This document shows positions 1,210 through 57,246 of a DNA stretch of 64,000 bases, one piece after another; position 1 is the stretch's first letter; each line of letters begins with the position of its first letter. A program made the position numbers and the translations under genes. The notes beneath the pieces are model-generated. The model did no database searches, was not told the DNA's origin, and worked only from the letters and a program-made list of their open reading frames with translations. Source of the DNA: an uncultured delta proteobacterium (GTDB taxonomy: Bacteria > Desulfobacterota > Desulfobacteria > Desulfobacterales > UBA11574); NCBI GenBank assembly GCA_963778575.1, contig CAVZUV010000008.1, forward strand, positions 86,746 to 150,745, written 5' to 3'.

Positions 1210-1235
1210 TTTACATCCTGTAAAAAATTCTGACA
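1210..1235 (+). promoter_or_regulatory. 26-nt upstream element (putative enhancer/UAS), copy 1
   Basis: TTTACATCCTGTAAAAAATTCTGACA. It has a TTTACA/TGTAAA palindromic core and lies 122 nt upstream of the TGGCAT at 1332. The same element occurs at five other sigma-54 promoters. Confidence 0.7.
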
Positions 1236-1292
1236 CGAACTTTTTTCTTCGCCCAGTGAAGATGTTATCTATAGTTAAAAAAAATAAATATT

Positions 1293-1305
1293 TATCAGTC
1301 TGTTA
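1293..1305 (+). promoter_or_regulatory. IHF-like site at -39 relative to the -24 box
   Basis: TATCAGTCTGTTA compared with the IHF consensus WATCAANNNNTTR. Similar sites sit at the same offset at 14671, 31119 and 23662. Confidence 0.4.
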
Positions 1306-1331
1306 TTTCGAATTGCTCAAAAAATAATGGT

Positions 1332-1346
1332 TGGCATATCTTTTGC
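1332..1346 (+). promoter_or_regulatory. sigma-54 (-24/-12) promoter
   Basis: TGGCAT-ATCTT-TTGC matches TGGCAC-N5-TTGC. It lies 39 nt upstream of the ATG at 1385, which has a GGAGG RBS. Confidence 0.75.
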
Positions 1347-2951: not shown

Positions 2952-5501
2952 GTGAAGCGCATTCTCACATACCAGATTTTTCCTTCTATCCCGAAATCAC
3001 TGGCCTTTTTGGAAGTTTTGTCTCGAAATCTCTGGTGGTGCTGGAAGCAGGATGCCATCACGCTGTTTCGGCGCATTGAACCGCAACTTTGGATAGAATC
3101 CAGAGGAAACCCGATTTACCTTTTGTCCCATGTCAGTCAGAAGCGCTTGGAGGAGCTGGCCGGGGATGACAGTTTTTTGAGCCATCTGCAACGGGTCGAG
3201 GATCGTTTTACAAAACGGGTTATCGATCATGCCGAACTATCCAATTCTCTTTACAAAAAAATGGGACCGGTGGCCTATTTTTCAATGGAATTTGGTGTCA
3301 ATGAAAATATTCCCTTTTTTGCCGGCGGACTGGGTGTCCTTGCCGGAGACCACTTAAAAGCTGCCTCCAACATGGCGTTGCCCCTCGTCGGGATCGGGTT
3401 GCTGTATCGAAAGGGCTATTTCCGTCAATATCTTGATCAAGAGGGATTGCAACAGGAAGAATATCCGGAAATAGAATTTTATTATCTTCCACTGGAGCGC
3501 GCCCGGGATCCCCAGGGCAATGAAATCACAATTTCAATTAATGGGCCTGAAAACGAGATTCACGCGTTTGTCTGGAAAATCCGAGTGGGCCGCACCCCTC
3601 TGTTTTTGCTCGATACCAATCTTCCTGAGAATACTCCGGAGGCCCGGGAAATTACGGCACGCCTTTATGTAGCTGAGCCCAAAATCAGGCTGGCCCAGGA
3701 AATACTGCTCGGCATCGGCGGCATGCGGGCATTGGCGGCTATGGATCTCTTTCCATCCGTTTGTCATATGAATGAAGGGCATTCGGCTTTCTCCGCTCTG
3801 GAACGTCTTGCACTGTTCATGGAGCGTTTTCACGTAGATTTAAAGACTGCCTTGCAAATTATTCCCCGTTGTACAATGTTTACCACTCATACCCCGGTTG
3901 CCGCCGGGCATGATTCTTTCCCCGTCGATTTGGTCAAGCCGTGGATTCGGCCGTTGAAAGATCGCCTGGGAGCCGGTGAAGAAGAAATTTTATCTTGGGG
4001 GCAAACTGAGGGTTTCAATAAAGACGCGCCGTTTTACATGTGTATTCTGGGTCTGCGAATGTCTCAGTATCGTAACGGCGTCAGCCGTCTTCACGACAGA
4101 ACCGCCAGAAAGATGTGGGCCCATCTTTGGCCGGGGTGGCCGGAAGACGAGATCCCGATTTCCCATGTCACCAACGGAATACATGTCTCGACGTTTATTT
4201 CCCAGGAAATCTGGCCGTTGTTTGAACGTTATCTGGGACCGGAATGGTACATGAGTTCACGGCGGCCCGAAAACATTGACCGTATTGACGAGATTTACGA
4301 CGACGAGCTCTGGCGGGCCCATGAGATGAGCCGTTCCCGGTTGATCCGCACCTGCCGAGGACTATTAAAACAACAATACGAAAGACGCAATGCACCCAAG
4401 AGCGTCATCGAAAAAATCGAAGCAGTCCTGAATCCTGAAGTGTTAACCATCGCCTTTGCCCGCAGGTTTGCTGCTTACAAACGGGCGCACCTGCTGCTTG
4501 AGGATCCTGATCGGCTGGCGGCGATTCTCAACAACGAAACCCGTCCGGTGCAGATCATTTTCGCTGGAAAAGCCCACCCCCAGGACAAAAAAGGAAAAGA
4601 AATCATCAAACGTCTGCTTGAATTTATCCGCCGGCCGGAAATTCGTCCGCACGCAGTATTTATTGAGGGTTACGATATGGCACTGGCAAGATCTCTGGTT
4701 CAGGGCGCCGATGTCTGGCTGAGTACTCCCCGCAGACCTTTAGAGGCCTGCGGCACATCCGGGATGAAAGCCGCCGTCAATGGTGTGCTCAATGTCAGTA
4801 TTTTGGATGGATGGTGGTGTGAAGGCTATTCCGAAGAACGGGGATGGCGAATCGGAGGCGGTGAAGAATATGTCGATCATGAATACCAGGATGCCACCGA
4901 GAGTCAGGCTCTGTATAACGTGTTGGAAAATGATGTAATCTCATGCTTTTACGAAGAGAACGAGGGAGAACTTCCAAAGCGCTGGATTCGAATGATGAAA
5001 GCCTCTATGAAAATGGCCATGAAGGATTTTTGCAGCTTGCGAATGGTTGGAGAATATGAACAACGCTTTTATAATCCCATCGTTCACCGGTTGAAAGCAT
5101 TGCTGAATAAAAATGGTCTGGAAGCCCGCAACCTTGCGCTCCAACAAGAACGGATTCAGAGCCTGTGGAAGGACATCCGCATTGGGCTGCCCGTCCAGAC
5201 CCGCAAGGGACCGTTTCGCGTTGGTGATCACTTCGAAGTTACGGTAGAAGTCGATCTGGGAAAACTAAATCCCGAAGAAGTCAGCGTGGAACTTTACAAT
5301 GGGCACATGAAAGCAGTGGATGCACTGGAGGGTATCAGTACGATTCCTATGACCGTCATTGAGCATTTCGGTAATGGAAATTATCGTTACGGTTGCAAGG
5401 TCCCCTGTGGATTGTCCGGACGGTATGGATTTACGGTCAGGGCCATACCCGCAGGTGACGATTTTTTAAAATTTTTGCCGCGATTGATCACCTGGTCTTA
5501 G
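2952..5501 (+). CDS. glgP: alpha-glucan (glycogen) phosphorylase, GT35, DUF3417-type N-terminus
   Basis: 849 aa. Motifs FSMEFGV..PFFAGGLGVLAGDHLKAAS, TTHTPVAAGHD and GTSGMKAAVNGVLNVSILDGWW (PLP-lysine region). GTG start. Confidence 0.9.
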   Translation: MKRILTYQIFPSIPKSLAFLEVLSRNLWWCWKQDAITLFRRIEPQLWIESRGNPIYLLSHVSQKRLEELAGDDSFLSHLQRVEDRFTKRVIDHAELSNSLYKKMGPVAYFSMEFGVNENIPFFAGGLGVLAGDHLKAASNMALPLVGIGLLYRKGYFRQYLDQEGLQQEEYPEIEFYYLPLERARDPQGNEITISINGPENEIHAFVWKIRVGRTPLFLLDTNLPENTPEAREITARLYVAEPKIRLAQEILLGIGGMRALAAMDLFPSVCHMNEGHSAFSALERLALFMERFHVDLKTALQIIPRCTMFTTHTPVAAGHDSFPVDLVKPWIRPLKDRLGAGEEEILSWGQTEGFNKDAPFYMCILGLRMSQYRNGVSRLHDRTARKMWAHLWPGWPEDEIPISHVTNGIHVSTFISQEIWPLFERYLGPEWYMSSRRPENIDRIDEIYDDELWRAHEMSRSRLIRTCRGLLKQQYERRNAPKSVIEKIEAVLNPEVLTIAFARRFAAYKRAHLLLEDPDRLAAILNNETRPVQIIFAGKAHPQDKKGKEIIKRLLEFIRRPEIRPHAVFIEGYDMALARSLVQGADVWLSTPRRPLEACGTSGMKAAVNGVLNVSILDGWWCEGYSEERGWRIGGGEEYVDHEYQDATESQALYNVLENDVISCFYEENEGELPKRWIRMMKASMKMAMKDFCSLRMVGEYEQRFYNPIVHRLKALLNKNGLEARNLALQQERIQSLWKDIRIGLPVQTRKGPFRVGDHFEVTVEVDLGKLNPEEVSVELYNGHMKAVDALEGISTIPMTVIEHFGNGNYRYGCKVPCGLSGRYGFTVRAIPAGDDFLKFLPRLITWS

Positions 5502-14588: not shown

Positions 14589-14614
14589 TTTACATCCTGT
14601 AAAAAATACTGACA
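14589..14614 (+). promoter_or_regulatory. 26-nt upstream element, copy 2
   Basis: TTTACATCCTGTAAAAAATACTGACA, 121 nt upstream of the TGGCAC at 14710. Confidence 0.7.
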
Positions 14615-14670
14615 TCAGTTTTTTTTCTTCCATGGAGAAACGTTAACGGGTCATTAAAAATTAGCGGATT

Positions 14671-14683
14671 TATCAAAGAGTTA
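14671..14683 (+). promoter_or_regulatory. IHF-like site at -39
   Basis: TATCAAAGAGTTA is a full match to WATCAANNNNTTR. Confidence 0.5.
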
Positions 14684-14709
14684 TTTAAACGCTTTTTAAA
14701 AGACGCCTT

Positions 14710-14724
14710 TGGCACACCTTTTGC
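14710..14724 (+). promoter_or_regulatory. sigma-54 (-24/-12) promoter
   Basis: TGGCAC-ACCTT-TTGC is a perfect consensus, 81 nt upstream of the ATG at 14805. Confidence 0.8.
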
Positions 14725-19270: not shown

Positions 19271-19285
19271 TGGCATATCTTTTGC
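19271..19285 (+). promoter_or_regulatory. sigma-54 (-24/-12) promoter
   Basis: TGGCAT-ATCTT-TTGC is identical to the 15-mer at 1332. It lies 117 nt upstream of the ATG at 19402. No convincing 26-nt element is present upstream. Confidence 0.65.
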
Positions 19286-19401: not shown

Positions 19402-22400
19402 ATGAACGATAAAGTCTCCGGGATACTTTTTGACAAACACGACCATGAGTTGATCCGAATCGTCAACGATGTCCTTGAAGGGAAAAGCAGCTACAAGTAC
19501 GCCCGCCGAGTTTACTATCCGTACTTCCATTCCCACGGCATCAAAGAAATGACTGAAACCAGGGGATTGCGGATCGCCTATGCGGTGGTCCACCTGTTAA
19601 GTTCTCTGGAAGTCGGCGGGGTTGAGGAACGTATCAATGCGTTGCGCCTCTTGCGCAATGAAGTGATCGATACCGCCGAAGGCCCGATGCCGAAAAATAC
19701 CGCCAGGGTGTTACTGCAAATCATGAAGGATTTGGTGCGGGTTCGCGGCGATTATCGCAAGCAACTTCAACTGGCCCATGACTTCCGGATGGCGACATCC
19801 GGGAAACCGCGCATCATCCGGCGGCAACTCAAACGCTACCATCTCTTGGAGATGCCCGAAGATTGGAATCAAATTGCATTCGACGATCATGTTCACGATG
19901 TCAACACCAAAGGGCGCAAGTCTTCCACCCATCTTGTTATGGATGCATGGATAAAAGGTATCCAACGCCTGCGGGTGATCCACTACAACTTTATCGAGCC
20001 GCGTTTTGCGGCCGAACTTCTTGAAGCCGCCAAAATTCTGAAAATCGACATTCGAATCGGCATTGAGTTTTATACGCGATTCCATGACAAATACGTGCAA
20101 TTGATATGGGTCCCTCGCGGGTTTAACGATGCACAGGCATTCCTATGCTTTCTTGCCGAACCGGCAGTCATGAAGATCATGGAGGCCGGCCGAAGGGTTT
20201 CGATCTATCAACAAGAATATGTTCCGGCGCTTCTTAAGAAATTTAATGAAAGCCACCGTCCGGAGATCAACCGAATTTACGGAATCGAGTTGCCCTCCAT
20301 TGATGAAAAAGAATTTCTGGCGTACGTGGGGATCGGGCAGAAATCAAGATTGCATCTCGCGAAATTCATCCATGACCGGATGTTGAAAGTGTTGCAGGGG
20401 AAAACCGATCGGTTAAAGGAAGAGTTTCTCTTGGCAAGCCCCGAACGGCGAGATACCATCACCCAATGGATCGAATCCATGAACACACAGGATTTCGAAT
20501 CCGTCATCGACGGGTATCTGGCGCCTGAAAAAAACCGCGGGATCAGATATCCGGATATGGTGGACGATGGCCCGGATGTCCCGGAACTGTTGCAACTCGG
20601 TTCATTTGAAATTTTGAGACGACTCGCTCAACTCCATTCGGGATACCGGGTGACGCTGAATCTAACCAATTTGAACGCCGGGGATGTCCTGGAGCTGTTA
20701 TACGATTGCCAAGGGATGATTACCCGGCTCGAGATATTCAATCTTAAAGATCATGCCGCGGGCAAGACCGCCCATATTGCTGAAATCAGCCGTTTGCAGG
20801 AAGCGATTAACGAAGGAAGTCCGATTCATCTAAAGCAAATCATTCGTGAGATTATTGAAGATCTCAGGCAACCGGGAACTTCGGCCAATGCTCAACAAAT
20901 AGACAAATTGATTACGATTCTCTACGATATCGATATATTGAAGTCTTACTACGCCGGAAAGCCCCTTAAATCTAGGATCGGAAGTGATTCCACGGGCCGT
21001 TCTCCCAAGGTTCATGGAATGGGGCTGGCGATCAAGGAAACGCTTCCGAGACGGGCGCAACGGCAAATCGTACTGGATTGCCGGACGGGTGTTCGTGAGA
21101 CCATTCCCATTAAAATCAATGCATACAAATACACGATTGACATTCCACATGAATCCGCCAGGCCATTTGACAAGTTAATATCCGGATTGGCAACGATTCT
21201 CCCGGGTTTCAGCCGATTAAACGTCATACGCCGACAAGGCTGGCAGGTTCAGGCGACTTCTACCCGTATGGTTCGCTCGGGCAACATTGTGACTCTCGGT
21301 GGCGCTCAGAAAAATATTGTTAACGAACTTTATCTCAAGGCGCCGGAGTTGCCGAAAAGAAGGCGAGGGTTGCAGTGGTCCTATTTGAACTCAAAGCTGA
21401 AAAACGCTCTCAAGGTAATGATCGGATTTATTCCGGCTTTTCTAACCTTTGCCCTGACCAAGGATTGGTGGGTGTTGGCTTATTTGGGAGCCTTTATCTG
21501 GTTCGGAATTACCGGTCTGCGCAATATTCTTCAATCTGTTCTGGGCGGCGGCGGTTTTCGCCGCTCGCCGCTGTTGAATTGGAATGATTACGTCAGTTGG
21601 ACGCGTATTACGGATTCTCTGCTTTTCACCGGATTTTCCGTACCGCTTTTGGATTATGTGGTCAAAACCGTGATATTGGATCGGGGGTTTGGTATCACGA
21701 CCCAGACCAGCCCGGTTCTTTTGTATACATTTATGGCGTTGGCCAACGGTATTTATTTGTCCGGTCATAATATTTTCCGTGGTCTGCCCAAAGGCGCGGT
21801 TTATGGGAACTTCTTCCGCAGCATCCTGTCCATTCCCGTGGCCGTAATATTAAATGCCGGTATCGGCGGCATCCTCACCATGTCGCAAACAGCGGGTGTC
21901 AATGATATATTGCAAAAGTGGGCGGCGATTATATCAAAGGCCGCATCGGATTTTGTTGCCGGTTTCATTGAAGGGACCGCCGACCGGTACAAGAATATCC
22001 GGACGCGTTTGCGTGAGTACAAAAACAAGTTCAGAGAGCTTTTGGACATTTATGCACAATTGGAACTGCTCTATCCGGACGTAGAGTCTTTCAAAATCCT
22101 TGATTGTGCATCTGACATGAATCGGAAAACCAATGCAGAAGCCCGGGATCTCGAAAAAATTATCATGATCCACGCCCTGGACATGCTGTATTTTTGGATG
22201 TACCAGCCGCGTTCCCACGTGGCTTTTCCGCAATTCTTGCGCACGCTTTCAGTCGATGAACGCTATATTCTGGTCAGCTCGCAGTTCACACTTCAGCGTC
22301 ACCGTGAGATCAGTCAAATGTTTATTGACGGCATCTTGGGATTCAATTTTCCTCGGCCGCTTTCGTTTTATCTTTCACGCTACGAGGAATACCTTGAACA

Positions 22401-22470
22401 AATCAAACAATTGGTGCTCAGTGAAGAATTCGGAGAGGTGTATGCTGAAAACGCTGTGCCCCCTAATTGA
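19402..22470 (+). CDS. large (1022 aa) hypothetical protein: ~650-aa soluble N-terminal region plus C-terminal polytopic membrane domain
   Basis: Long uninterrupted ORF. TM segments run from about residue 665 (VMIGFIPAFLTFAL, WWVLAYLGAFIWFGITGL, LLYTFMALANGIYL, ILSIPVAVILNAGIGGIL). No family recognised by eye. Confidence 0.75.
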   Translation: MNDKVSGILFDKHDHELIRIVNDVLEGKSSYKYARRVYYPYFHSHGIKEMTETRGLRIAYAVVHLLSSLEVGGVEERINALRLLRNEVIDTAEGPMPKNTARVLLQIMKDLVRVRGDYRKQLQLAHDFRMATSGKPRIIRRQLKRYHLLEMPEDWNQIAFDDHVHDVNTKGRKSSTHLVMDAWIKGIQRLRVIHYNFIEPRFAAELLEAAKILKIDIRIGIEFYTRFHDKYVQLIWVPRGFNDAQAFLCFLAEPAVMKIMEAGRRVSIYQQEYVPALLKKFNESHRPEINRIYGIELPSIDEKEFLAYVGIGQKSRLHLAKFIHDRMLKVLQGKTDRLKEEFLLASPERRDTITQWIESMNTQDFESVIDGYLAPEKNRGIRYPDMVDDGPDVPELLQLGSFEILRRLAQLHSGYRVTLNLTNLNAGDVLELLYDCQGMITRLEIFNLKDHAAGKTAHIAEISRLQEAINEGSPIHLKQIIREIIEDLRQPGTSANAQQIDKLITILYDIDILKSYYAGKPLKSRIGSDSTGRSPKVHGMGLAIKETLPRRAQRQIVLDCRTGVRETIPIKINAYKYTIDIPHESARPFDKLISGLATILPGFSRLNVIRRQGWQVQATSTRMVRSGNIVTLGGAQKNIVNELYLKAPELPKRRRGLQWSYLNSKLKNALKVMIGFIPAFLTFALTKDWWVLAYLGAFIWFGITGLRNILQSVLGGGGFRRSPLLNWNDYVSWTRITDSLLFTGFSVPLLDYVVKTVILDRGFGITTQTSPVLLYTFMALANGIYLSGHNIFRGLPKGAVYGNFFRSILSIPVAVILNAGIGGILTMSQTAGVNDILQKWAAIISKAASDFVAGFIEGTADRYKNIRTRLREYKNKFRELLDIYAQLELLYPDVESFKILDCASDMNRKTNAEARDLEKIIMIHALDMLYFWMYQPRSHVAFPQFLRTLSVDERYILVSSQFTLQRHREISQMFIDGILGFNFPRPLSFYLSRYEEYLEQIKQLVLSEEFGEVYAENAVPPN

Positions 22471-22530: not shown

Positions 22531-23313
22531 CTAAGACGCTGTTGCTGTTTCAGCTATTCCGGAATATGAAAGTTCCTCGGCAAACTTTTTCTTAAAGGCC
22601 AGTTCAACAATCTCCGCCGCATCTCGTGTATTTTTGATATAGTCACAATTGATCACCAAATCAAACTCATATGGAACGGCCATTTTTTTGTCGAAAATCT
22701 TTTTAAAAAATTCACTTTGTTCCTTATCCAATTGCGGTAACTTTGAGGCGGCCTCTTTCTTTTCAACGTTGAGAATTCTGGACAATCGCTTAATCCGGTG
22801 CTCGTCCGAACAGATGCATCTGACCGCCAGCACCCGGTCCCGGGGAAGGATTAAATGGGTTCCCCTGCCGACAAAAATGGTGGGTTCCAAGCCGGCGATG
22901 GAAAGCACAACATTCGCAAGATGACGGCTATAGTCGCTTTTAATAAAGGATTTTTCACCGAAGAGAAGCTTGACGAATTCGTTTAAAACGCCGGGATACC
23001 GTTCATCGAAATAGGAGACTGTTTTTTCGCTGAGTTTCGCCTCCTGGGCGATATGCATCAGCAGTCCCCTGTCAACCACATTGTAGTTGATCTTTTTTGC
23101 CAGAATATCTGCAATCTCGAGAGCGCCGACGCCGATTTTTCGAGAAAAACAGATCGTAGGAAAAATCGCGGGTCTCTTTTCCTTTTTTTTCTTTTCAATC
23201 CATTTTTGATCCAGATCACGAAAATACTTATCAGCCAGTTGGGAACCGGTGGGTCTTTTTTTTTCGTACATCCCCGGAATGTATTTTACACCTCCGATTT
23301 GTATAGCCATCAT
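22531..23313 (-). CDS. cytidylate kinase-like family protein
   Basis: 260 aa with TICFSRKIGVGALEIADILAKKINYNVVDRGLL. Resembles 54910..55761 in its N-terminal half. Confidence 0.6.
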   Translation of the reverse strand: MMAIQIGGVKYIPGMYEKKRPTGSQLADKYFRDLDQKWIEKKKKEKRPAIFPTICFSRKIGVGALEIADILAKKINYNVVDRGLLMHIAQEAKLSEKTVSYFDERYPGVLNEFVKLLFGEKSFIKSDYSRHLANVVLSIAGLEPTIFVGRGTHLILPRDRVLAVRCICSDEHRIKRLSRILNVEKKEAASKLPQLDKEQSEFFKKIFDKKMAVPYEFDLVINCDYIKNTRDAAEIVELAFKKKFAEELSYSGIAETATAS

Positions 23314-23408
23314 ATACCTCCTTTTAGACTCATAATTCTATCTGAAGCGATCAATTTGCAAAGGCGAAGCACTCACCAAGTCCTCGGAACTATTTTATGA
23401 CTGTTTTT

Positions 23409-23423
23409 GCAACTATTATGCCA
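23409..23423 (-). promoter_or_regulatory. sigma-54 (-24/-12) promoter, minus strand
   Basis: The reverse complement reads TGGCAT-AATAG-TTGC. It lies about 96 nt upstream of the minus-strand ATG at 23313. Confidence 0.7.
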
Positions 23424-23519
23424 CGGGGAGATAAAAGAAAGGTATCTCTTATATAATTGAATTGTCAGTAAATATAATCTATACTTCCGAAAAATTGGAT
23501 TTGCTTCGGTCAGCAAATC

Positions 23520-23545
23520 TGTCCGTTTTTTTTACAAACTGTAAA
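23520..23545 (-). promoter_or_regulatory. 26-nt upstream element, minus-strand orientation
   Basis: The minus strand reads TTTACAGTTTGTAAAAAAAACGGACA, starting 122 nt upstream of the minus-strand TGGCAT at 23423. Confidence 0.7.
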
Positions 23546-23579
23546 AAGAAAAAAGCATTACCGTTCTAAAAAGATTCTC

Positions 23580-23605
23580 TTTACAGGTTGTAAAAATATC
23601 CGACA
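23580..23605 (+). promoter_or_regulatory. 26-nt upstream element, copy 4
   Basis: TTTACAGGTTGTAAAAATATCCGACA, 122 nt upstream of the TGGAAT at 23702. Confidence 0.7.
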
Positions 23606-23661
23606 GGTTATTTATCAATTCTCCTACCACATCTTCTTAAAATATATTTATAAAACAATTA

Positions 23662-23674
23662 TAACAATATGTTA
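23662..23674 (+). promoter_or_regulatory. IHF-like site at about -40
   Basis: TAACAATATGTTA, one mismatch to WATCAANNNNTTR. Confidence 0.35.
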
Positions 23675-23701
23675 ATGTAGTTCCCCCGGCATTTTTATTT
23701 C

Positions 23702-23716
23702 TGGAATAGTTATTGC
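23702..23716 (+). promoter_or_regulatory. sigma-54-type promoter with non-canonical -24 box
   Basis: TGGAAT-AGTTA-TTGC. It is accepted mainly because the 26-nt element and the IHF-like site sit at the canonical offsets. Confidence 0.55.
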
Positions 23717-23837
23717 TTCTTGTTTTGTTATGGACATCAAGGGGCTTATGCCATTTCTAGTTCGTTCGTTTCTCTCTATTGGAATGTTGGAATAATGTAC
23801 AGCATCTATCCCATGCAGCAGGAAAGGAAGGTTCATA

Positions 23838-24773
23838 ATGAAGAATCAATCTCAACAAAAAGTACTGTTGACTTTTGACGGATCCGAACATGCTTTTCAT
23901 GCGATAAATTATGTGAGCAAACTCACCCCTTTTCATAAAATGAAGATTGTGCTTTTTAATGTTTTCAGCAGCATACCCGAGGCGTATGCGGATCTTGAAA
24001 AAGATCCCCAATTCAGTCGATCCGCCCGGGAGGTCATGGCGTGGGAAATGCAGCAGAAAAAAGAGATTCAAAACGCCATGGAGAATGCAAAGCAAAAGCT
24101 TCTCCATTCAGGCTTTTCTTCAGACGCCGTCTCCATACGAATTCATAACAAGAAAGAAGGTATTGCCAGAGACATCGTCAAGGAAGCCCGGAACGGGTAC
24201 GATGCAGTGATTATCGGGCGAAGGGGCACGGGTACCTATAAAGAGGTCATTGTTGGAAGCGTTGCGAAAAAAATCGTTGAAAAAGTGATTTTCCTGCCGG
24301 TTTTAATGATCGGTGAAATACCCCCTGACAACAAATTTCTATTAGCCGTTGACAACTCAGAAAATGCCATTCGGGCTGTAGATTACATTGCTCGTGTACT
24401 GGGTGGTTTCGATTTCAAAATAACCTTGTTTCATGCCATTCGAGGTGCCCAATCGACTCATTCAGGTATTGCGCATCTATTTTTTCCCAAAGAAAGCTTA
24501 GAGGATGCAGAAGCCGGTGTAATGACTGCTTTCGACAACGCAAAACGACATTTGGAAGATGCCGGTATTACGTCCGGTCAAATATCTACCAAATTGGTTT
24601 CCGGCGTCCCCAGCCGCGCAGAAGCGATTATTAGAGAAGCGAGAGAGGGAGATTACGGCACCATCGTTTTAGGCCGAAGAGGCCTGTCCAAGGTTCAGGC
24701 ATTTTTGCTGGGCAGGGTGAGTAACAAAGTCATTAGCATTATCCGAAGAAGAGCGGTATGGATCGTGACCTAA
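23838..24773 (+). CDS. tandem-domain universal stress protein
   Basis: 311 aa with two Usp repeats (IIGRRGTGTYKEVIVGSVAKKIVEKVIFLPVLMI and VLGRRGLSKVQAFLLGRVSNKVISIIRRRAVWIV). Confidence 0.85.
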   Translation: MKNQSQQKVLLTFDGSEHAFHAINYVSKLTPFHKMKIVLFNVFSSIPEAYADLEKDPQFSRSAREVMAWEMQQKKEIQNAMENAKQKLLHSGFSSDAVSIRIHNKKEGIARDIVKEARNGYDAVIIGRRGTGTYKEVIVGSVAKKIVEKVIFLPVLMIGEIPPDNKFLLAVDNSENAIRAVDYIARVLGGFDFKITLFHAIRGAQSTHSGIAHLFFPKESLEDAEAGVMTAFDNAKRHLEDAGITSGQISTKLVSGVPSRAEAIIREAREGDYGTIVLGRRGLSKVQAFLLGRVSNKVISIIRRRAVWIVT

Positions 24774-24818: not shown

Positions 24819-25301
24819 ATGAAGGCGATTATGGATTTCAAAAAGTTCGATTTCTTTCATGCGTTTTCGGAAGATCAGTTGGGAGAACTCATGAAAGTCA
24901 CGGAGAAAAAAACCTTCAAAAAAGGGACTCAAATCTACAAGGAGGGTGATCGGGCCAATCAAATTTTTATCGTTTCCAAAGGATGGGTGAAACTGCGAAA
25001 GATTGATCCGGGAAAAGATATTGACATTTCTTTTGAAAACAGGAGCAAAGGGGAGCTGTTCGGTGCGGCATGTTTTATGAAACCCCAGGAATATACATTG
25101 AATGCCATATGTATGGAAGACACTGAGGTTATGGCCATGAACGCGGATGACTTATTTGATCTCTTCCATAAAGATTATCAAATCGGATACCTTTTTCTAA
25201 AAGAAATCGCAAAGGTCTATTTCGAACGCTATAAAAACGTCAAAAAACAGCTTTATGGCATGTTCAAAGACCCTGCGACCATCACAGCACTGCCGGGATA
25301 A
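24819..25301 (+). CDS. cyclic-nucleotide-binding domain protein without a DNA-binding domain
   Basis: ATG 24819 after an AGGAGG RBS. FDFFHAFSEDQLGELMK..FKKGTQIYKEGDRANQIFIVSKGWVKL..GELFG. About 160 aa, too short to carry an HTH. Confidence 0.7.
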   Translation: MKAIMDFKKFDFFHAFSEDQLGELMKVTEKKTFKKGTQIYKEGDRANQIFIVSKGWVKLRKIDPGKDIDISFENRSKGELFGAACFMKPQEYTLNAICMEDTEVMAMNADDLFDLFHKDYQIGYLFLKEIAKVYFERYKNVKKQLYGMFKDPATITALPG

Positions 25302-25353: not shown

Positions 25354-25566
25354 ATGGCAGAGAGCGTTTATAAAATCATTGAGTTGGTGGGGACCAGCCG
25401 TTCTTCATGGGAAGATGCCGCTAAAAATGCAGTGGAAACAGCTTCCGGCACGCTTAAAGAGCTTAGAATCGCGGAAATTACCAAGCTGGACTTGAAGATC
25501 GAAAATGGGAAAGTGGCGGCTTATCGCGCCCGGGTAAAGCTTTCCTTTAAATATGAAAAAGAATGA
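25354..25566 (+). CDS. dodecin-family flavin-binding protein
   Basis: 70 aa with VYKIIELVGTSRSSWEDAAKNAVETASGTLKELRIAEITKLDLKIENGKVAAYRARVKLSF, the typical dodecin sequence. Confidence 0.8.
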   Translation: MAESVYKIIELVGTSRSSWEDAAKNAVETASGTLKELRIAEITKLDLKIENGKVAAYRARVKLSFKYEKE

Positions 25567-26536: not shown

Positions 26537-26562
26537 TTTACATTCTGAAAAAAATATCGACA
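26537..26562 (+). promoter_or_regulatory. 26-nt upstream element, copy 5 (variant)
   Basis: TTTACATTCTGAAAAAAATATCGACA. It lies 100 nt upstream of the TGGCAT at 26637, which is 22 nt shorter than at the other promoters. Confidence 0.6.
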
Positions 26563-26636
26563 CTGAACTGACTCCATCGGAAAGAGACATATAAAATAAC
26601 CCCTTGTAAAAGCGTATATTATCGAATTTGGCGCTA

Positions 26637-26651
26637 TGGCATGTTTTTTGC
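26637..26651 (+). promoter_or_regulatory. sigma-54 (-24/-12) promoter
   Basis: TGGCAT-GTTTT-TTGC, 70 nt upstream of the ATG at 26721. Confidence 0.7.
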
Positions 26652-31035: not shown

Positions 31036-31061
31036 TTTACACCTTGTAAAAAAAATCGACA
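31036..31061 (+). promoter_or_regulatory. 26-nt upstream element, copy 3
   Basis: TTTACACCTTGTAAAAAAAATCGACA, 122 nt upstream of the TGGCAT at 31158. Confidence 0.7.
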
Positions 31062-31118
31062 TCTATTTTCTTCATGATGTTTTCAAATATTGCCCTCCTG
31101 TCTTAAAAACACTTTTTA

Positions 31119-31131
31119 TTTCAATTAATTG
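31119..31131 (+). promoter_or_regulatory. IHF-like site at -39
   Basis: TTTCAATTAATTG, one mismatch to WATCAANNNNTTR. Confidence 0.35.
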
Positions 31132-31157
31132 ATGAAGTTTCAGACAACGATTTCATC

Positions 31158-31172
31158 TGGCATAGCGATTGC
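31158..31172 (+). promoter_or_regulatory. sigma-54 (-24/-12) promoter
   Basis: TGGCAT-AGCGA-TTGC, 53 nt upstream of the ATG at 31225. Confidence 0.75.
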
Positions 31173-37058: not shown

Positions 37059-37507
37059 CGAAATTGGAAGCCTTGAAAGTTCTTTTTGTAGATGACGAAA
37101 TCGATTTTTTGGAAACACTGATGAAGCGCATGAAAAAGCGCGGCGTGGATGTCGCAGGGGTCGGAAGCGGCGAAGAGGCACTCGATTATTTGAACATGCA
37201 TCGGGCAGATGTGGTTGTGCTGGATGTCAGAATGCGGGGTATCGGGGGAATAAATGCGTTAAAGGAGATAAAGAAAATAGATCCTTTGATGGAAGTCATT
37301 ATGTTAACCGGTCACGCCAGCATAGAAGCGGCCATAGAAGGCATGGAATCGGGTGCTTTTGATTATCTTATGAAACCGGCGGATTTTGATGAGCTTTTTT
37401 ACAAGATTCAGGACGCTTTTAAAAAAAGAACCATACAGAAACAAAAAATTGAAAAACTTGGAAATCTCAAACTGACGGATCAAAAGAAAGGAGCGATATC
37501 AACGTGA
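37055..37507 (+). CDS. single-domain response regulator
   Basis: GTG start overlapping the upstream stop by 4 nt. VLFVDDEID ... VVVLDVRMRGIGG ... LMKP. Confidence 0.85.
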   Translation: MTKLEALKVLFVDDEIDFLETLMKRMKKRGVDVAGVGSGEEALDYLNMHRADVVVLDVRMRGIGGINALKEIKKIDPLMEVIMLTGHASIEAAIEGMESGAFDYLMKPADFDELFYKIQDAFKKRTIQKQKIEKLGNLKLTDQKKGAIST

Positions 37508-38803
37508 ACTTTTTAAAACAATGGGGACAATTTATGATGATGGGTGCAAGGGCCCATGCGCGGTGGGAGATTAGTGTATCCAATACCATTTTTAGCGATA
37601 AAAAACGGCTGTTAATTTTAGGCTTGCTGACCATCCCCATTATCTTGGGAGGCATAGCGTTTGCAGACCAGATCGGCGGGGCGTTGCCAAAATTATTGGG
37701 CGGCAAAAAGGCTTACAGTCCTGCGTTTTACAGTACAGGCATATTTGTCGTCTCCATTCTTATCGGACTGGGCGCCGGGCTGATTACCGGATGCATCGGC
37801 GCCGGCGGCGGATTTATCATTGCACCGGCTTTGATGAGCGCCGGCGTTAAAGGCATTTTAGCGGTGGGAACCGACCTATTCCATATTTTTGCAAAGGCCA
37901 TCATGGGAAGCGTCATCCACCGGAAACTTGGGGAATATTTCCGTGGCACTGGCACTGGTCTTTTTAATCGGCGCCATTATAGGCGCTACCGTCGGCGGCG
38001 TCATTAACCGCCTATTATATGCCATCAATCCCGTGCTCAGTGACGCATTTATCACGACCGTTTACTCGGTTATGCTTGGATTCTTGGGAATTTATGCCAT
38101 GACTGATTTTCTCATGGCTAAAAGAGCAGAGCGCAAGGACTTTCATGGCAGGGAGACCCGTGGCAAAAAGGTTGAAGGCGCGGAAATGGGGGGCCTTCCC
38201 AAAAAGCTCCAGGCTGTCAATCTTCCTCCAAAAGTCAAATTCGATTATGATCTTACCCCCGAGGGGAGAAGTATTTCATGGGTCTTTTTGGTCTTAAGCG
38301 GCGGGATGGTCGGATTTGTGGCGGCCATCATGGGCGTTGGCGGCGGCTTTTTGACATTTCCGATTTTTGTTTATGTTCTGGGCGTTTCCTCCATGACTAC
38401 GGTAGGAACCGACATTTTCCAGATTGTGTTCACCGCCGGTTATGCCGCCATCAGCCAGTATGCGATTTACGGATTTATTTTCTACACGCTTGCCATGGGG
38501 ATGCTTTTGGGGTCTTTGGTGGGGATCCAGGTCGGGGCAATTGTGACTAAGGTCGTTCGCGGCATCACGATCCGCGGGTTCTACGCCATGGCGGTCCTCG
38601 CCGGTTTTGTTAACCGGGTCTTTGCACTGCCGGCCAAGCTGGGTGCCATGGATATCATTAAGATATCAAAAGGAACCGGAGCTCTACTGGAAAAAATTGG
38701 AATATGGGCATTTTTCGTCGTAATATTGGGATTCGCGATATGGGTAATCGGCACGTTTTTAATGAATATCCGAGTACTTAAAGGTGGGGAGGCTGAATCA
38801 TGA
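37504..38803 (+). pseudogene. TauE/SafE-like permease paralog interrupted by a 1-nt frameshift in a G4 run (37930..37933)
   Basis: ORFs 37504..38007 and 37889..38803 together align along the whole of 14805..16085. Frame A reads ..GSVIHRKLG and frame B continues NISVALALVFLIG, where the paralog has HKKLGNVNYRLAIAFVVG. Removing one G restores a single ORF. Confidence 0.7.
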
Positions 38804-44279: not shown

Positions 44280-46283
44280 CTAATTCAACACCAAATCGAT
44301 GACCTCTTCCAATTCATTGATTTCGATGATCTGAATATCTTTTTTAATATCCTCGGAGATATCCTTGATGTCCGAATTGTTTCTGGCCGGGAAAACCACG
44401 GATTTGACACCGGCCCGGTGCGCGGCCAGGACCTTTTCCTTGACGCCGCCCACAGGCAGAATCCTTCCGCTTAACGTCAACTCGCCGGTCAGCGCGACGT
44501 TCCTTTTGCAGGAACGGTTCGTTATCAGGCTGATGAGCGCTACGGCGATGGTCACGCCGGCGGACGGACCGTCTTTAGGGATCGCGCCGGCAGGCACATG
44601 GATGTGAATGTCATGGGTTTCGAATAGGCTGTCCGGGATATTGAAAGCATCAGCGTGGCTTCGAATATAACTCATCGCCGCGTGAGCCGATTCCTTCATC
44701 ACGTCTCCCAATGACCCGGTGAGAATAAGATTGCCTTTTCCTTTCATTTTGGCGGCTTCAATAAAGATGATCTGGCCTCCGGCTTCCGTCCATGCCAGTC
44801 CGGTGGCCACGCCCACCCTTTCTCTGGCTTCTGCAATCTCGAAATAAAACTTTTGAGGGCCTAAAAAATCTTCCACCATTTCCGGCGTTAGATGGGTCGC
44901 TCCGTCTTTATACGCCCCGCGCAATGTTTCACGGGCGATTTTACGGCAAATGGATGCAATCTGACGTTTGAGATTTCTCAAACCCGCTTCCCGGGTGTAC
45001 TCCCGGATGATCTTATGGATGGTCTCCGGCGTGAAAACCGGCGGGTTTTCGGTGAGCCCCGCTTCTTCGATTTCTCTGGGGATTAAATATCGGGTTGCGA
45101 TTTTTGCTTTTTCTTCTTCCGTATACCCCAACAGGGTAATCACCTCCAGGCGGTCCAGCAGGGGGCCCGGAATAAGATCCAGGGCATTTGCAGTGGCGAT
45201 GAACATCACACGAGACAGGTCAAAGGGAACATCCAGGTAATGATCCGTAAAATGCGTATTCTGTTCGGGATCAAGAACCTCCAGCAAGGCCGCGGCCGGA
45301 TCCCCTTTAAAATCACCGCCGATTTTGTCGATTTCATCGAGCATAATCACGGGATTCTTTGTTTCCGCACGGCGTATTTCCTGAATAATTCTTCCCGGCA
45401 ACGCACCGACATAGCTTTTACGGTGCCCTCTTATTTCAGCCTCATCCTTCATGCCGGCCAGAGATATGCGAACAAATTTTCGTTCCAAACTCCTGGCAAT
45501 CGACATGCCCAGCGATGTTTTTCCGGTGCCGGGAGGGCCGGCAAAACAGAGTACCGGTCCTTTGGGCTCTAAACGAACTTTTTTCTTATACAATGCTTTT
45601 TGGATGGTTGAACGGATTTCATCGAGCCTTAACGGTTTGGTCAGATAATGGTATGATCCTTTTTTCATCGCCTCAATGGCCGTTGATACGGTGGCATACC
45701 CTGTGATGATAATCACTTCGGTACTTGGGTTGACCGCTTTGGCTTTTTCCAGAACCGTCATGCCGTCGACTTTTCCCATTTTGAGATCCGTGACGATAAC
45801 ATCAAAGGCACTTTTTTCCAGAAAATCCAACGCCTCTACACCATCGGAAGCGGTATTGACGTGATAGCCGTCTTTTTTAAAAACATGTTCCAGATTCTGG
45901 CGGGTAATTTTTTCATCATCCACCACCAGTATCTTGTGTTGGCCCGACATCTTGAGAATCCTGACGGAAAGATGCTCCAAAATGCGGTCTTTTATGTTGG
46001 CCAGTCCAAAATGATCTTCATCGAGGATGGATTCGGCCCGTTTAATATCGAGGTTGTCATTGGTCATTTTGTTCCAGGGCAGACTCAACAGATAATCGAT
46101 ATAGTTGATGCCGATGGTATATTCAGTGCTTGAAGGGGAGGTTTTGGTCAGCCGCTCGAGTTCTTTGTGGACGACTTTTTCTACCGGTTCGGGCATTTTG
46201 GCCCTTTGTACGTCTTCTTTAAGTTCATTGAGTTCCGACGGCAGTTCCTTCATTTGTCCTTTTTCCTTCTTAAATATTCGCAT
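44280..46283 (-). CDS. lon: Lon-type ATP-dependent protease lacking the N-terminal substrate domain and carrying an inserted receiver (REC) domain
   Basis: 667 aa. Lon linker LDEDHFGLANIKDRILEHLSV, then REC (ILVVDDEKITRQNLE...VIVTDLKMGKVDG...LTKP), then Walker A GPPGTGKTS, and the protease motif PKDGPSAGVTIAVAL. Confidence 0.85.
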   Translation of the reverse strand: MRIFKKEKGQMKELPSELNELKEDVQRAKMPEPVEKVVHKELERLTKTSPSSTEYTIGINYIDYLLSLPWNKMTNDNLDIKRAESILDEDHFGLANIKDRILEHLSVRILKMSGQHKILVVDDEKITRQNLEHVFKKDGYHVNTASDGVEALDFLEKSAFDVIVTDLKMGKVDGMTVLEKAKAVNPSTEVIIITGYATVSTAIEAMKKGSYHYLTKPLRLDEIRSTIQKALYKKKVRLEPKGPVLCFAGPPGTGKTSLGMSIARSLERKFVRISLAGMKDEAEIRGHRKSYVGALPGRIIQEIRRAETKNPVIMLDEIDKIGGDFKGDPAAALLEVLDPEQNTHFTDHYLDVPFDLSRVMFIATANALDLIPGPLLDRLEVITLLGYTEEEKAKIATRYLIPREIEEAGLTENPPVFTPETIHKIIREYTREAGLRNLKRQIASICRKIARETLRGAYKDGATHLTPEMVEDFLGPQKFYFEIAEARERVGVATGLAWTEAGGQIIFIEAAKMKGKGNLILTGSLGDVMKESAHAAMSYIRSHADAFNIPDSLFETHDIHIHVPAGAIPKDGPSAGVTIAVALISLITNRSCKRNVALTGELTLSGRILPVGGVKEKVLAAHRAGVKSVVFPARNNSDIKDISEDIKKDIQIIEINELEEVIDLVLN

Positions 46284-46553
46284 GATAGGATTCCTCTATT
46301 TTCCGTATACAATCAGATTCAACTGCCCCGCGCAATAATTTTTTGCTGTGGGTCTGCCCGCCAATAATAGGCGTTACAATACGCAACGAGACCTTCTTTT
46401 TTTGCAATATTGAATAACTTTCTAATATTAAAAGAGATATTTTCATCATCCAAAGAACCATTGCAGATTGCAACGTTTTTATAGGAGGTGATTATAATGT
46501 TAATATCGATATAAATATAATGTTATCAATTAGATATATATTTTCGGCGGCAT

Positions 46554-46568
46554 TGGCACAAGAGTTGC
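46554..46568 (+). promoter_or_regulatory. sigma-54 (-24/-12) promoter
   Basis: TGGCAC-AAGAG-TTGC is a perfect consensus. The predicted start near 46580 excludes the track start at 46576. Confidence 0.7.
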
Positions 46569-46620: not shown

Positions 46621-46797
46621 ATGTTTAAATTCAAAGAGACTTTCGACAGATTGATGGCGGCAATTACCTTTGCCCAGGCCAATGAGCATGAGATGGCGCT
46701 TGATATCATGCATGACCGTCCGGAAAGCGAATCCCGGAAAAAGGCCGAAGACCGTGTTCGGCGCAGTGAAGAAACCCGTCCGGAGATGCGTATTTAA
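46621..46797 (+). CDS. small protein (58 aa) with TFA(E/Q)A(G/N)E motif
   Basis: GGAGGA RBS 8 nt before ATG 46621. MFKFKETFDRLMAAITFAQANEHEMALDIMHDRPESE... Confidence 0.55.
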   Translation: MFKFKETFDRLMAAITFAQANEHEMALDIMHDRPESESRKKAEDRVRRSEETRPEMRI

Positions 46798-46834
46798 CCG
46801 GACGCCAAGGATCAGCGGGAAAAAAAGGATAACG

Positions 46835-47335
46835 ATGAAAAGCGTATTGTTAACCATAGACGGCATGACCCCCGACCAAAAGGCATTCGAGTATGCGGTG
46901 TCTCTTTGCAAGCGGATACAGGCGGAGCTGAGCATATTCCAGATCATCAGACCCCGGTACTATCGCAAGTATATGAAAAAGATTCGAAAAAATGCCTTGC
47001 TTGCCAAAAAGCTCGTTGAAAGCGCCATAATAGCGGCAACCTTTGCGGAAGCCGGTGAGCACGAGACGGCTTTGGATATAATGACTGAGGCCTCGAAGCA
47101 GATTGAACATCTCATTCAGGAATCGGAAAAAGCAGGTGTTCATTGTCGCTTTTCGATTACGTCGGGGAATCCGGAAAAAGAGATCGTCGAATATGTCAAC
47201 GACCATCGGGACGTTATTTTGACCATCTACGATGTTTTCGGTGGCAGCGGAACCGTCGAAAGCTTTGAAAAGAAAAATACCCTTGCGAAGATTAAAAGAA
47301 ATTTATCGGTTCCCCTGGTTACGGTTCACGGTTAG
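46835..47335 (+). CDS. Usp-like protein with an internal TFAEAGE motif insert
   Basis: ATG 46835 after an AAGGA RBS. MKSVLLTIDGMTPDQKAFEYAVSL (Usp-like N-terminus), then AATFAEAGEHETALDIM, then Usp-like C-terminal strands. Confidence 0.65.
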   Translation: MKSVLLTIDGMTPDQKAFEYAVSLCKRIQAELSIFQIIRPRYYRKYMKKIRKNALLAKKLVESAIIAATFAEAGEHETALDIMTEASKQIEHLIQESEKAGVHCRFSITSGNPEKEIVEYVNDHRDVILTIYDVFGGSGTVESFEKKNTLAKIKRNLSVPLVTVHG

Positions 47336-55808: not shown

Positions 55809-57236
55809 ATGAAAATCAGCATCAGAGGGAAAATTTTTTTAGCTTTTGTCATCTTTATCTCCATCAGTGGCTTGATATGGGCACGCAGTTATTACAGCCA
55901 GTATATTCTAAATCAGAAGATCCAGATTATCGAAAGAAAGTACGACCTTTTAAACGCCATTCTTGAAGCCCGCCGGTACGAGAAAAACTACTTTCTATCC
56001 TTTGATAAAAAGAACATCATCGAAACGCTGAACTATGTCCGCCGTGCAGAGGATATCCTTCGCGATATATTGACCCGATACTCAAAATACACTCTGGCCC
56101 AAAACCTCGATGAAAGAATCGCCGAACTGGTGACCTACAAGAATTCCCTCGCCAATCTTTTGAAACTCCAAGAACAAGGGCAATTAATGGTCTCCCCGAA
56201 TACCATTGAACGCATCCGTACCCAGGGTAGAATTCTGACCAGCGAGCTGGAAAAAATCGTTACAAAAGAGAGCCAATTCATCCGAAACCTGATCGGAAAA
56301 TCACAGACGATCCATCTTTTGGCGCTGATCCCCGTGTTTATCCTTTCTGTTTTAATTGCCCTCTTTTTGATTTTCAATGTCAACCGTCCGCTGAAAACCA
56401 TTGAAAACGCCATTACCAAGATTGCCAGAGGAGATTTTAATAATATCCCGGAAATCAAAACCGGGGATGAATTTGAATCTCTGGTGACCAGTCTCAACAA
56501 TATGATCGATGAGCTGAACCAGCGGAGCAAGCAGCTCGTACAGGCTCAGAAGCTGGCTTCCCTGGGAAGACTGACGTCAGGTGTGGCGCATGAACTGAAC
56601 AATCCTCTCAACAATATTTCCACCTCCCTTCAAATCCTTATCGAGGAACTGGCGGAAAACGATCTGGAATATAAAAAAGAACTGCTGGTCGGCGCTGAAA
56701 AAGAGGTGGAACGGGGTAAAGAAATCGTTCGATCGTTGTTAGAGTTCGCCAGGGAGCGGTCTTTGAGCTTGAAACAGGTGGCTTTTAAGGATTTGGTGGA
56801 CAGCGCCATTTCTCAAGTTCGATCACAAATACCGGATAATATACATTTTAATATCGATGTGCCCGAAGATATCCGGGCCACTTTGGGGCCGCAGCGAATA
56901 GAACGGGTGTTGATCAATCTTATCGTCAATGCCGTGCACGCCATGAAAAACGGAGGAGATATTGCTATCAGGGCCAAAAATGAACGGGACAAAAATGGAT
57001 TTTCTTTCCAGGTGATCGACACGGGCGAAGGCATTGATGAAAAAATCATTTCAAAAATTTTCGATCCTTTTTTTACCACAAAAGGCGTCGGCAAGGGCTC
57101 GGGACTGGGGCTTTCCATTGTTTACGGCATCATAGAGCAGCATGACGGCAAGATATCCGTTTCCAGCGAAATCGGCAAAGGAACGACATTTACCTGTTTT
57201 CTGCCGTATCATCAACCCGGACAGCGGCGATTGTAA
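55809..57236 (+). CDS. sensor histidine kinase (TM - helical sensor - HAMP - HisKA - HATPase)
   Basis: H-box AHELNNPLNNIS, HAMP (NRPLKTIENAITKIARGDF) and GSGLGLSIVYGIIEQHDG. Confidence 0.9.
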   Translation: MKISIRGKIFLAFVIFISISGLIWARSYYSQYILNQKIQIIERKYDLLNAILEARRYEKNYFLSFDKKNIIETLNYVRRAEDILRDILTRYSKYTLAQNLDERIAELVTYKNSLANLLKLQEQGQLMVSPNTIERIRTQGRILTSELEKIVTKESQFIRNLIGKSQTIHLLALIPVFILSVLIALFLIFNVNRPLKTIENAITKIARGDFNNIPEIKTGDEFESLVTSLNNMIDELNQRSKQLVQAQKLASLGRLTSGVAHELNNPLNNISTSLQILIEELAENDLEYKKELLVGAEKEVERGKEIVRSLLEFARERSLSLKQVAFKDLVDSAISQVRSQIPDNIHFNIDVPEDIRATLGPQRIERVLINLIVNAVHAMKNGGDIAIRAKNERDKNGFSFQVIDTGEGIDEKIISKIFDPFFTTKGVGKGSGLGLSIVYGIIEQHDGKISVSSEIGKGTTFTCFLPYHQPGQRRL

Positions 57237-57246
57237 AAGGATAAGT

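Follow-up and report, generated by a model that had tools for sequence, protein, structure and literature searches.

In a stretch of DNA from an uncultured delta proteobacterium, two copies of a 26-nt element lie back-to-back between a cytidylate-kinase-like (cmk-like) gene and an operon that starts with a tandem universal stress protein (Usp), and each copy quite probably serves its own sigma-54 promoter as an upstream activating sequence, acting through an activator of the bEBP type and an IHF-type bend. As judged from its sequence, the unit made up of element, IHF box and promoter is a genuine sigma-54 control module of classical architecture, and it is set apart from known control regions by a near-perfect orientation rule and a fixed distance. 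Across several bacterial orders, the distance between element and promoter is locked at 122 nt, plus or minus about 3 nt. Below, "the window" denotes the whole stretch of 64,000 nucleotides that was analysed, and L-numbers denote individual loci or contigs from other genomes.

The element pair and its two promoters

The genes on both sides of the intergenic region were assigned by Pfam as they had been named in the initial annotation, i.e. Cytidylate_kin2 leftward, and tandem Usp, cNMP-binding protein and dodecin rightward. Protein names in public sources put the organism among uncultured Desulfobacterales. The features of the region are as follows:

22531-23313, minus strand: cytidylate-kinase-like gene (PF13189, by Pfam), leftward target
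23409-23423, minus strand: sigma-54 -24/-12 promoter of the cmk-like gene, TGGCATAATAGTTGC
23450-23462, minus strand: weak IHF-like AT-rich box, ATTCAATTATATA, two mismatches, centre 33 nt upstream of TGG
23520-23545, minus strand: element A, predicted upstream activating element, TTTACAGTTTGTAAAAAAAACGGACA, GACA tail facing left, towards the cmk-like gene
23580-23605, plus strand: element B, predicted upstream activating element, TTTACAGGTTGTAAAAATATCCGACA, GACA tail facing right, towards the Usp operon
23662-23674, plus strand: IHF-like box, TAACAATATGTTA, one mismatch to WATCARNNNNTTR, centre 34 nt upstream of TGG
23702-23716, plus strand: sigma-54 -24/-12 promoter of the Usp/cNMP/dodecin operon, TGGAATAGTTATTGC
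23838-24773, plus strand: tandem universal stress protein of 311 aa (by Pfam), with which the rightward operon begins
24819-25301, plus strand: cNMP-binding protein, 160 aa as called in metagenome contigs
25354-25566, plus strand: dodecin

The geometry proposed at the outset holds to the base: the two copies occupy opposite strands at the above coordinates, their 5' ends are 35 nt apart (34 intervening bases), and the distance from the start of the element to the start of TGG on the same strand is exactly 122 nt on both sides. In both promoter boxes GG and GC are exactly 10 nt apart, as in the sigma-54 consensus TGGCAC-N5-TTGCW, and the position of the boxes is conserved in orthologs. The leftward box, TGGCATAATAGTTGC, has one mismatch to this consensus and is found also at 122 nt in L007 and L009; transcription from it would start near 23398. 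The rightward box, TGGAATAGTTATTGC, has two mismatches, with TGGAAT off consensus at the C of TGGCAC and with GG and GC retained, and its transcription start is expected near 23727. That this non-canonical box is a real promoter had been proposed from the dependence on orientation, and comparison bears it out: an identical box stands at 122 nt in L007 and L122, and the canonical TGGCACAACTGTTGC takes its place in L009.

Element A is kept in L007, L122 and L009, and element B is near-identical in L007 and L122. The rightward IHF-like box is conserved in the alignment of the orthologous regions between the cmk-like and Usp genes; the leftward one is a poor match and only partly conserved there. 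Strain-level SNPs (contigs L001-L006) affect 13 positions of the intergenic region, all of them outside the elements and the promoter boxes, and a generic sigma-70 scan of the element region gave background-level scores. A hairpin with a 10-bp stem, TGGATTTGCTTCGGTCAGCAAATCTG, at 23496-23521 adjoins the tail of element A and scores as a bidirectional, terminator-like structure; as a part of the module it was rejected, because it is conserved neither in L007 nor in L122.

Six modules in the window

The core TTTACA-N3-TGTAAA, with at most one mismatch, occurs six times in the window compared with 0.16 expected, a number reached in 0 of 100 shuffles, and a weight-matrix scan, for which 70 related sites supplied the matrix, retrieves the same six copies and no others. 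The consensus of the element is YTTTACA-N2-C-TGTAAAAAW-N2-YYGACA, with GACA at element positions 23-26 in all six copies, and a sigma-54-type box is present on the GACA side of every copy, at 122, 121, 122, 122, 122 and 100 nt. The chance of finding TGG-N8-TTGC 120-124 nt from a given element is ~3e-4, and it was seen for five of the six elements, the sixth box being at 100 nt. Besides the divergent pair, the window comprises the following modules:

1210-1346, plus strand: element 1210-1235, exact IHF box 1293-1305, promoter 1332-1346; followed by genes for CBM48, two Usp and glycogen phosphorylase
14589-14724, plus strand, spacing 121 nt: element 14589-14614, exact IHF box 14671-14683, promoter 14710-14724; followed by a TauE-family permease gene
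26537-26651, plus strand, spacing 100 nt, i.e. two helical turns shorter: element 26537-26562, promoter 26637-26651; followed by genes for a stand-alone receiver and an acetyl-CoA hydrolase/transferase
31036-31172, plus strand: element 31036-31061, IHF-like box 31119-31131, promoter 31158-31172; followed by genes for an ADP-forming acyl-CoA synthetase/GNAT protein, a CBS protein, a receiver and a dCache histidine kinase

The 100-nt spacing of the module at 26537 recurs in L122. Positions 1-39500 of the window, which contain all six modules, have the character of a stress island with Usp, CBS, receiver, TauE, acyl-CoA/GNAT and glycogen genes, the latter coding for CBM48, phosphorylase and starch-synthase-like proteins. 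Two overlapping ORFs of this island (37504-38007 and 37889-38803, plus strand) match positions 2-59 and 59-233 of the TauE profile, which points to a TauE gene that is frameshifted or split, or else to an error of assembly.

Other sigma-54-like boxes occur in the window as well. One of them, TGGCATATCTTTTGC at 19271-19285 (plus strand), is identical to the box at 1332, has no TTTACA element upstream and precedes a 1022-aa ORF (19402-22470, plus strand) without Pfam or NCBIfam match, while a perfect box, TGGCACAAGAGTTGC at 46554-46568 (plus strand), precedes another Usp gene (46670-47335). A search for an alternative palindrome upstream of these two element-less promoters gave nothing significant; a palindrome TTGCA-N3-TGCAA at 46461-46473, 93 nt upstream of the box at 46554, occurs once, is not significant alone, and may be the site of another bEBP. 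A search of the whole window for Rfam families, i.e. for RNA elements in the 5' leaders, returned none at threshold.

Conservation of the divergent arrangement

Related loci were chosen by the identity of the cmk-like protein (83, 80, 67 and 60%), and L122 was added from a genome scan. The initial annotation had named conservation of both elements and of the 122-nt spacing in related genomes as the point to check, and both are indeed kept: four loci contain five back-to-back pairs (six counting the window) with elements 120-122 nt from their own promoters. L007 and L122 retain the divergent pair of cmk-like and Usp genes with two outward-facing elements, at 121-122 nt each, L009 contains two such divergent regions, with the canonical Usp promoter at 122 nt, and the remaining pair is in L111. 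The centres of the paired palindromes and the gaps between them are:

Window: 23538 and 23587, gap 49 nt
L009, first region: 1203 and 1273, gap 70 nt
L009, second region: 3666 and 3737, gap 71 nt
L111: 2803 and 2842, gap 39 nt
L122: 4495 and 4635, gap 140 nt
L007: 3586 and 3772, gap 186 nt

In the alignment of the regions between the cmk-like and Usp genes, conservation forms islands at both promoters, both elements and both AT-rich boxes, and the length of the inter-element segment is free. The distance of an element to its own promoter stays fixed at 120-122 nt (in L007, L122, both regions of L009, and L111) while the gap between the elements ranges over 39-186 nt. This is what one would expect if every element served the promoter on its own strand, and it supports the assignment that had been made from the window. 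The centre gaps amount to whole turns plus ~0.7 turn (at 10.5 bp/turn) in five of the six pairs, a sample too small to judge.

The same comparison bears on a different reading, according to which both palindromes constitute one composite enhancer, with dimers 49 bp apart that co-assemble and fire both promoters, the elements being shared. Tandem activator sites are usual at classical NtrC and DctD enhancers, and L013 (CP070700.1, Desulfobacteraceae, 3766-3927) contains one element between two divergent promoters, that of CBS-Usp at 124 nt on the tail side and that of a cmk-like gene at 133 nt on the side without a tail, with an IHF-like box at each; this single element may be a shared enhancer. 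However, pairs spaced 39-186 nt apart around a fixed own-promoter distance are not what co-assembly would lead one to expect, and the four other promoters of the window have a single element each, which makes a composite enhancer rather unlikely.

Spacing and the IHF box across species

An exact-pattern scan that covered 185,579 genomes, each standing for one species, gave at least 120 loci. At least 74 of the matches listed have TGG-N9-TGC downstream, and, among the matches listed, a box at ~100-155 nt is seen only in Thermodesulfobacteriota and in unclassified MAGs of Deltaproteobacteria or Proteobacteria. The carriers among the matches listed are Desulfobacterales, Desulfobaccales, Desulfomonile, Syntrophobacterales and Desulfohalobiaceae, and also NaphS2, Desulfatitalea, Desulfosudis and Desulfocicer; cultured strains among them include Desulfatitalea alkaliphila M08but, Desulfosudis oleivorans, strain NaphS2 and Desulfocicer vacuolatum. 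At least 31 matches, with no promoter, belong to a coding sequence, GTATAYCGTTTACARGGTGTAAAAATYAAYGACAARCA, that is conserved in Bacteroidota, Legionella and others; these matches (L020, L026, L027, L029, L036 and 26 others) have no relation to the element and were used as a negative control.

Relatives yielded more than 80 modules, in which the distance is most often 121-123 nt. When distances of 95-160 nt are counted among the matches listed, 52 of 67 fall at 118-125 nt, and the others are single distances of 99, 114, 116, 117, 153 and 155 nt, together with 111 nt in five cases and 112 and 135 nt in two cases each. These outliers lie approximately one, two or three helical turns from 122 nt and are in phase at 10.5-11 bp/turn (p ~0.01-0.03 for the outliers alone). 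The arrangement matches that of bacterial enhancers, in which an inverted repeat precedes the -24 boxes of several co-regulated promoters by 80-150 nt.

The exact IHF consensus, WATCARNNNNTTR, is present in 18 of 83 modules, compared with ~1 in shuffles, and always in the forward orientation. The exact boxes are centred 23-34 nt upstream of TGG (16 of 18 at 30-34 nt), roughly at -59 from the start site. Family-wide, a candidate IHF or bending site is therefore found between the activator site and the promoter; the two boxes of the focal region carry one and two mismatches.

Asymmetry of the tail and orientation

The initial annotation had claimed that the asymmetric 3' half of the element is functional besides the palindrome, and that the dependence on orientation is strict. 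Orientation was assessed in a search by the symmetric palindrome alone, with the seeded sites left out: 21 of 23 palindromes have a GACA tail on one side only and the sigma-54 promoter on the same side, and the other two have neither GACA nor a promoter. In the seeded palindromes the tail side is the promoter side in 61 of 62 cases. Both counts agree with the claim that the asymmetric half matters. Strictness is upheld by them only in part: L013 has a promoter on its tail-less side too, and orientation may therefore be a strong preference and not an absolute rule.

A part of the "AAAA" of the tail is a mere extension of the palindrome, and the A-run, although in part a mirror image of the pyrimidine run to the left, is much stronger than the latter; past GACA no conservation was seen. 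The first half-site and the tail each contain ACA, and the two ACA triplets are 20 bp, exactly two helical turns, apart. On this ground we read the tail as a putative third half-site, a weak one, that faces the same side of the helix.

It could be argued instead that the palindrome is the whole activator site and that the A-tract with GACA is a separate bend or protein site, or a sigma-70 -35 element comparable with that of glnAp1. In agreement with such a division, the tail hexamer is often CTGACA or TTGACA, and the tail-less side of L013 still has its promoter and IHF-like box. On the other hand, a -10-like hexamer at the right spacing is present in just 2 of 87 modules vs 14 of 87 at a control offset, and a -35 role of the xxGACA tail was rejected for this want of a -10 box; conservation ends with GACA, and the tail is placed exactly two turns from the first half-site. 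We therefore regard this division of the site as quite improbable.

A further interpretation of the preferred reading, in which each element activates its own promoter, is that the element is a directional and distance-locked enhancer, whose promoter-proximal half-site would make the hexamer act on one side only. The independence of orientation and distance that characterizes classical enhancers is not seen in the above counts (21/23, 61/62, and 52/67 among the matches listed), which are correlative. We put forward directionality tentatively, as a possibility that is open to considerable doubt but worth an experiment. If true, divergent sigma-54 promoters could not share one site and each would need its own oriented copy, and such an enhancer would contradict the textbook orientation-insensitivity of sigma-54 enhancers.

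Candidate regulator

Genomic linkage points to one group of NtrC-like response regulators as the likely activator. The 8-kb loci around the elements include 16 bEBP genes, of which 12 form a single orthologous group (65-88% identity within the group) with a GAFTGA loop and a near-invariant HTH, NRSQAAKLLGLSRPTLHSKIEKY. A four-helix-bundle sensor kinase is encoded ahead of every member of the group, and an element often follows the end of the bEBP gene at 9-200 nt; in a search that started from the protein, the element begins 9 nt (L134) and 23 nt (L137) past the stop codon of the bEBP gene. No element was found within 5 kb of the bEBP orthologs in L135 (Desulfatiglans anilini) and L136, and the pairing of regulator and site accordingly rests on adjacency in only some of the genomes. 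The linked bEBP L134:6014-7450 has its best NCBIfam match to ntrC, with 493.2 bits, which is under the NtrC/NR(I) equivalog cutoff (TIGR01818, 558.6 bits), and the closest solved structures are those of Aquifex NtrC1 and NtrC4.

The window itself contains neither a gene of this group nor an rpoN gene. L134, a relative with 88-91% nucleotide identity, aligns to the window from coordinate 1162 and has its kinase/bEBP pair just upstream, and so the corresponding pair is probably located ~5 kb past the left edge of the window.

The sole sigma-54 activator gene in the 64 kb, 57142-58617, with a kinase gene at 55809-57236, might be proposed as the regulator for being at hand. However, its product is only 36-39% identical to the element-linked bEBP group (12 species), its recognition helix is different (DRVSLWRKIKRF vs SRPTLHSKIEKY), and there is no element nearby; it was rejected on account of the low identity and the different helix, and we find it very unlikely as the activator of these modules. 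In this resident protein of the NtrC type (plus strand) the sigma-54 contact loop, canonically GAFTGA, reads DAFTGA, and its kinase (55809-57236) comprises HAMP and HisKA domains.

Proposed mechanism

According to the mechanism that we favor, an NtrC-family response regulator with receiver, AAA+ and Fis-type HTH domains would, upon an activating signal, bind as a dimer to the palindrome YTTTACA-N3-TGTAAAA, whose centre is placed ~141 nt upstream of the predicted transcription start. The promoter-proximal YYGACA, 20 bp from the first half-site, resembles an ACA-bearing half-site and may act as a weak third half-site that helps to nucleate and orient the active hexamer, and an IHF-type bend near -59 would then bring the hexamer onto the sigma-54 holoenzyme at TGG-N8-TTGC. 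Such a rigid geometry would fix both distance and orientation, for which reason the cmk-like gene and the Usp/cNMP/dodecin operon would each have their own back-to-back copy.

That the six copies merely represent a recently duplicated promoter cassette or small mobile repeat, without independent selection, as their number in one 64-kb stretch could suggest, is scarcely credible and was rejected: in the alignment of the six upstream regions only the element, the AT-rich/IHF box and the -24/-12 columns are conserved, similarity does not extend over the whole unit and its flanks (~50% column identity elsewhere), and the same bare motifs are found in several orders.

The modules would control a stress-type regulon of Usp, CBS, stand-alone receiver, transporter and glycogen genes. 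Among the first genes behind 63 modules, the commonest are those for Usp (14), stand-alone receivers (10), CBS proteins (5), Na/sulfate-type or CitMHS transporters (4), TauE (4), Cytidylate_kin2 (4) and dCache kinases (3).

Relation to known systems

To our knowledge, a motif of the TTTACA-N3-TGTAAA type has not been described, with the comparison covering known motifs other than that of DVU3305. In the enterobacterial glnAp2 control region, bound by NtrC (NR-I), the promoter is TGGCAC-N5-TTGC, and ~140 nt upstream of it is the centre of a 7-3-7 inverted repeat whose core is CA-N3-TG. The modules described here resemble it in having a 7-3-7 repeat with the same core ~140 nt upstream of a sigma-54 promoter, and the candidate regulator is likewise an activator with receiver, AAA+ and Fis-type HTH domains. 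However, the linked bEBP is below the ntrC equivalog cutoff (493 vs 558.6 bits), its presumed targets are Usp, CBS, receiver and transporter genes and not nitrogen genes, and one full site with a half-site takes the place of the two full sites three helical turns apart at glnAp2. Besides, the classical NtrC enhancer is active at varied distance and in either orientation, whereas orientation and distance are fixed here.

At the rhizobial dctA promoter DctD binds to a strong distal and a weak proximal site in tandem, and NifA recognizes TGT-N10-ACA in conjunction with IHF. Similarities to these systems include a strong site accompanied by a weaker promoter-proximal site, a (predicted) IHF bend between the site and the promoter, and dependence on the face of the helix, a property of the DctD and NifA systems that is indicated here by the phasing of distances. 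The motif differs, though, the weak site of the present element is just a half-site 20 bp away, and the constraint on distance is far tighter, over many promoters and genomes.

Among the published systems compared, the functionally closest is DVU3305 of Desulfovibrio vulgaris, a three-component system described by Rajeev 2011 (PMC3333781) as a general stress system that acts on Usp-domain and membrane or transport genes under several stresses. Like the bEBP group studied here, it combines a sigma-54 response regulator with a kinase encoded beside it, and its targets are of the Usp type. In contrast, its contact loop is GAFSGA (Kazakov 2015, PMC4641369) and not GAFTGA, and it has an obligatory Lon-receiver neighbour, which the bEBP group is without (a Lon-receiver gene is beside 0 of 12 linked bEBP genes). 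The orthologue list of DVU3305 in PMC3333781 includes no Desulfobacterales or Syntrophobacter genome, though these were in the species set. Orthology to DVU3305 is disfavoured because of the GAFSGA loop, the Lon-receiver neighbour and this list. The window encodes a receiver-Lon protease fusion (REC, AAA, Lon_C) at 44280-46283 (minus strand), an unusual architecture that is that of DVU3303 in the general-stress system.

Divergently transcribed sigma-54 operons whose activator sites occupy a shared upstream region are on record, e.g. the DVUA0100 type III secretion operons (Kazakov 2015, PMC4641369). There, as here, two divergent sigma-54 promoters are governed from one intergenic region; the motif is shared between them, unlike the present case, in which each promoter has its own oriented copy at 122 nt.

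Biological significance

The modules define the cis-code of a stress-type sigma-54 regulon, i.e. the site, the IHF box, the promoter and their fixed geometry, and indicate a two-component system as its likely regulator. Desulfobacterales, Syntrophobacterales, Desulfomonile and related lineages, for the most part sulfate reducers that have not been cultured, share this widespread regulon, and its members (Usp, CBS, receiver, transporter, glycogen and cytidylate-kinase-like genes) can be predicted from metagenome sequence. The orientation rule provides a clean natural system for testing enhancer directionality in bacteria.
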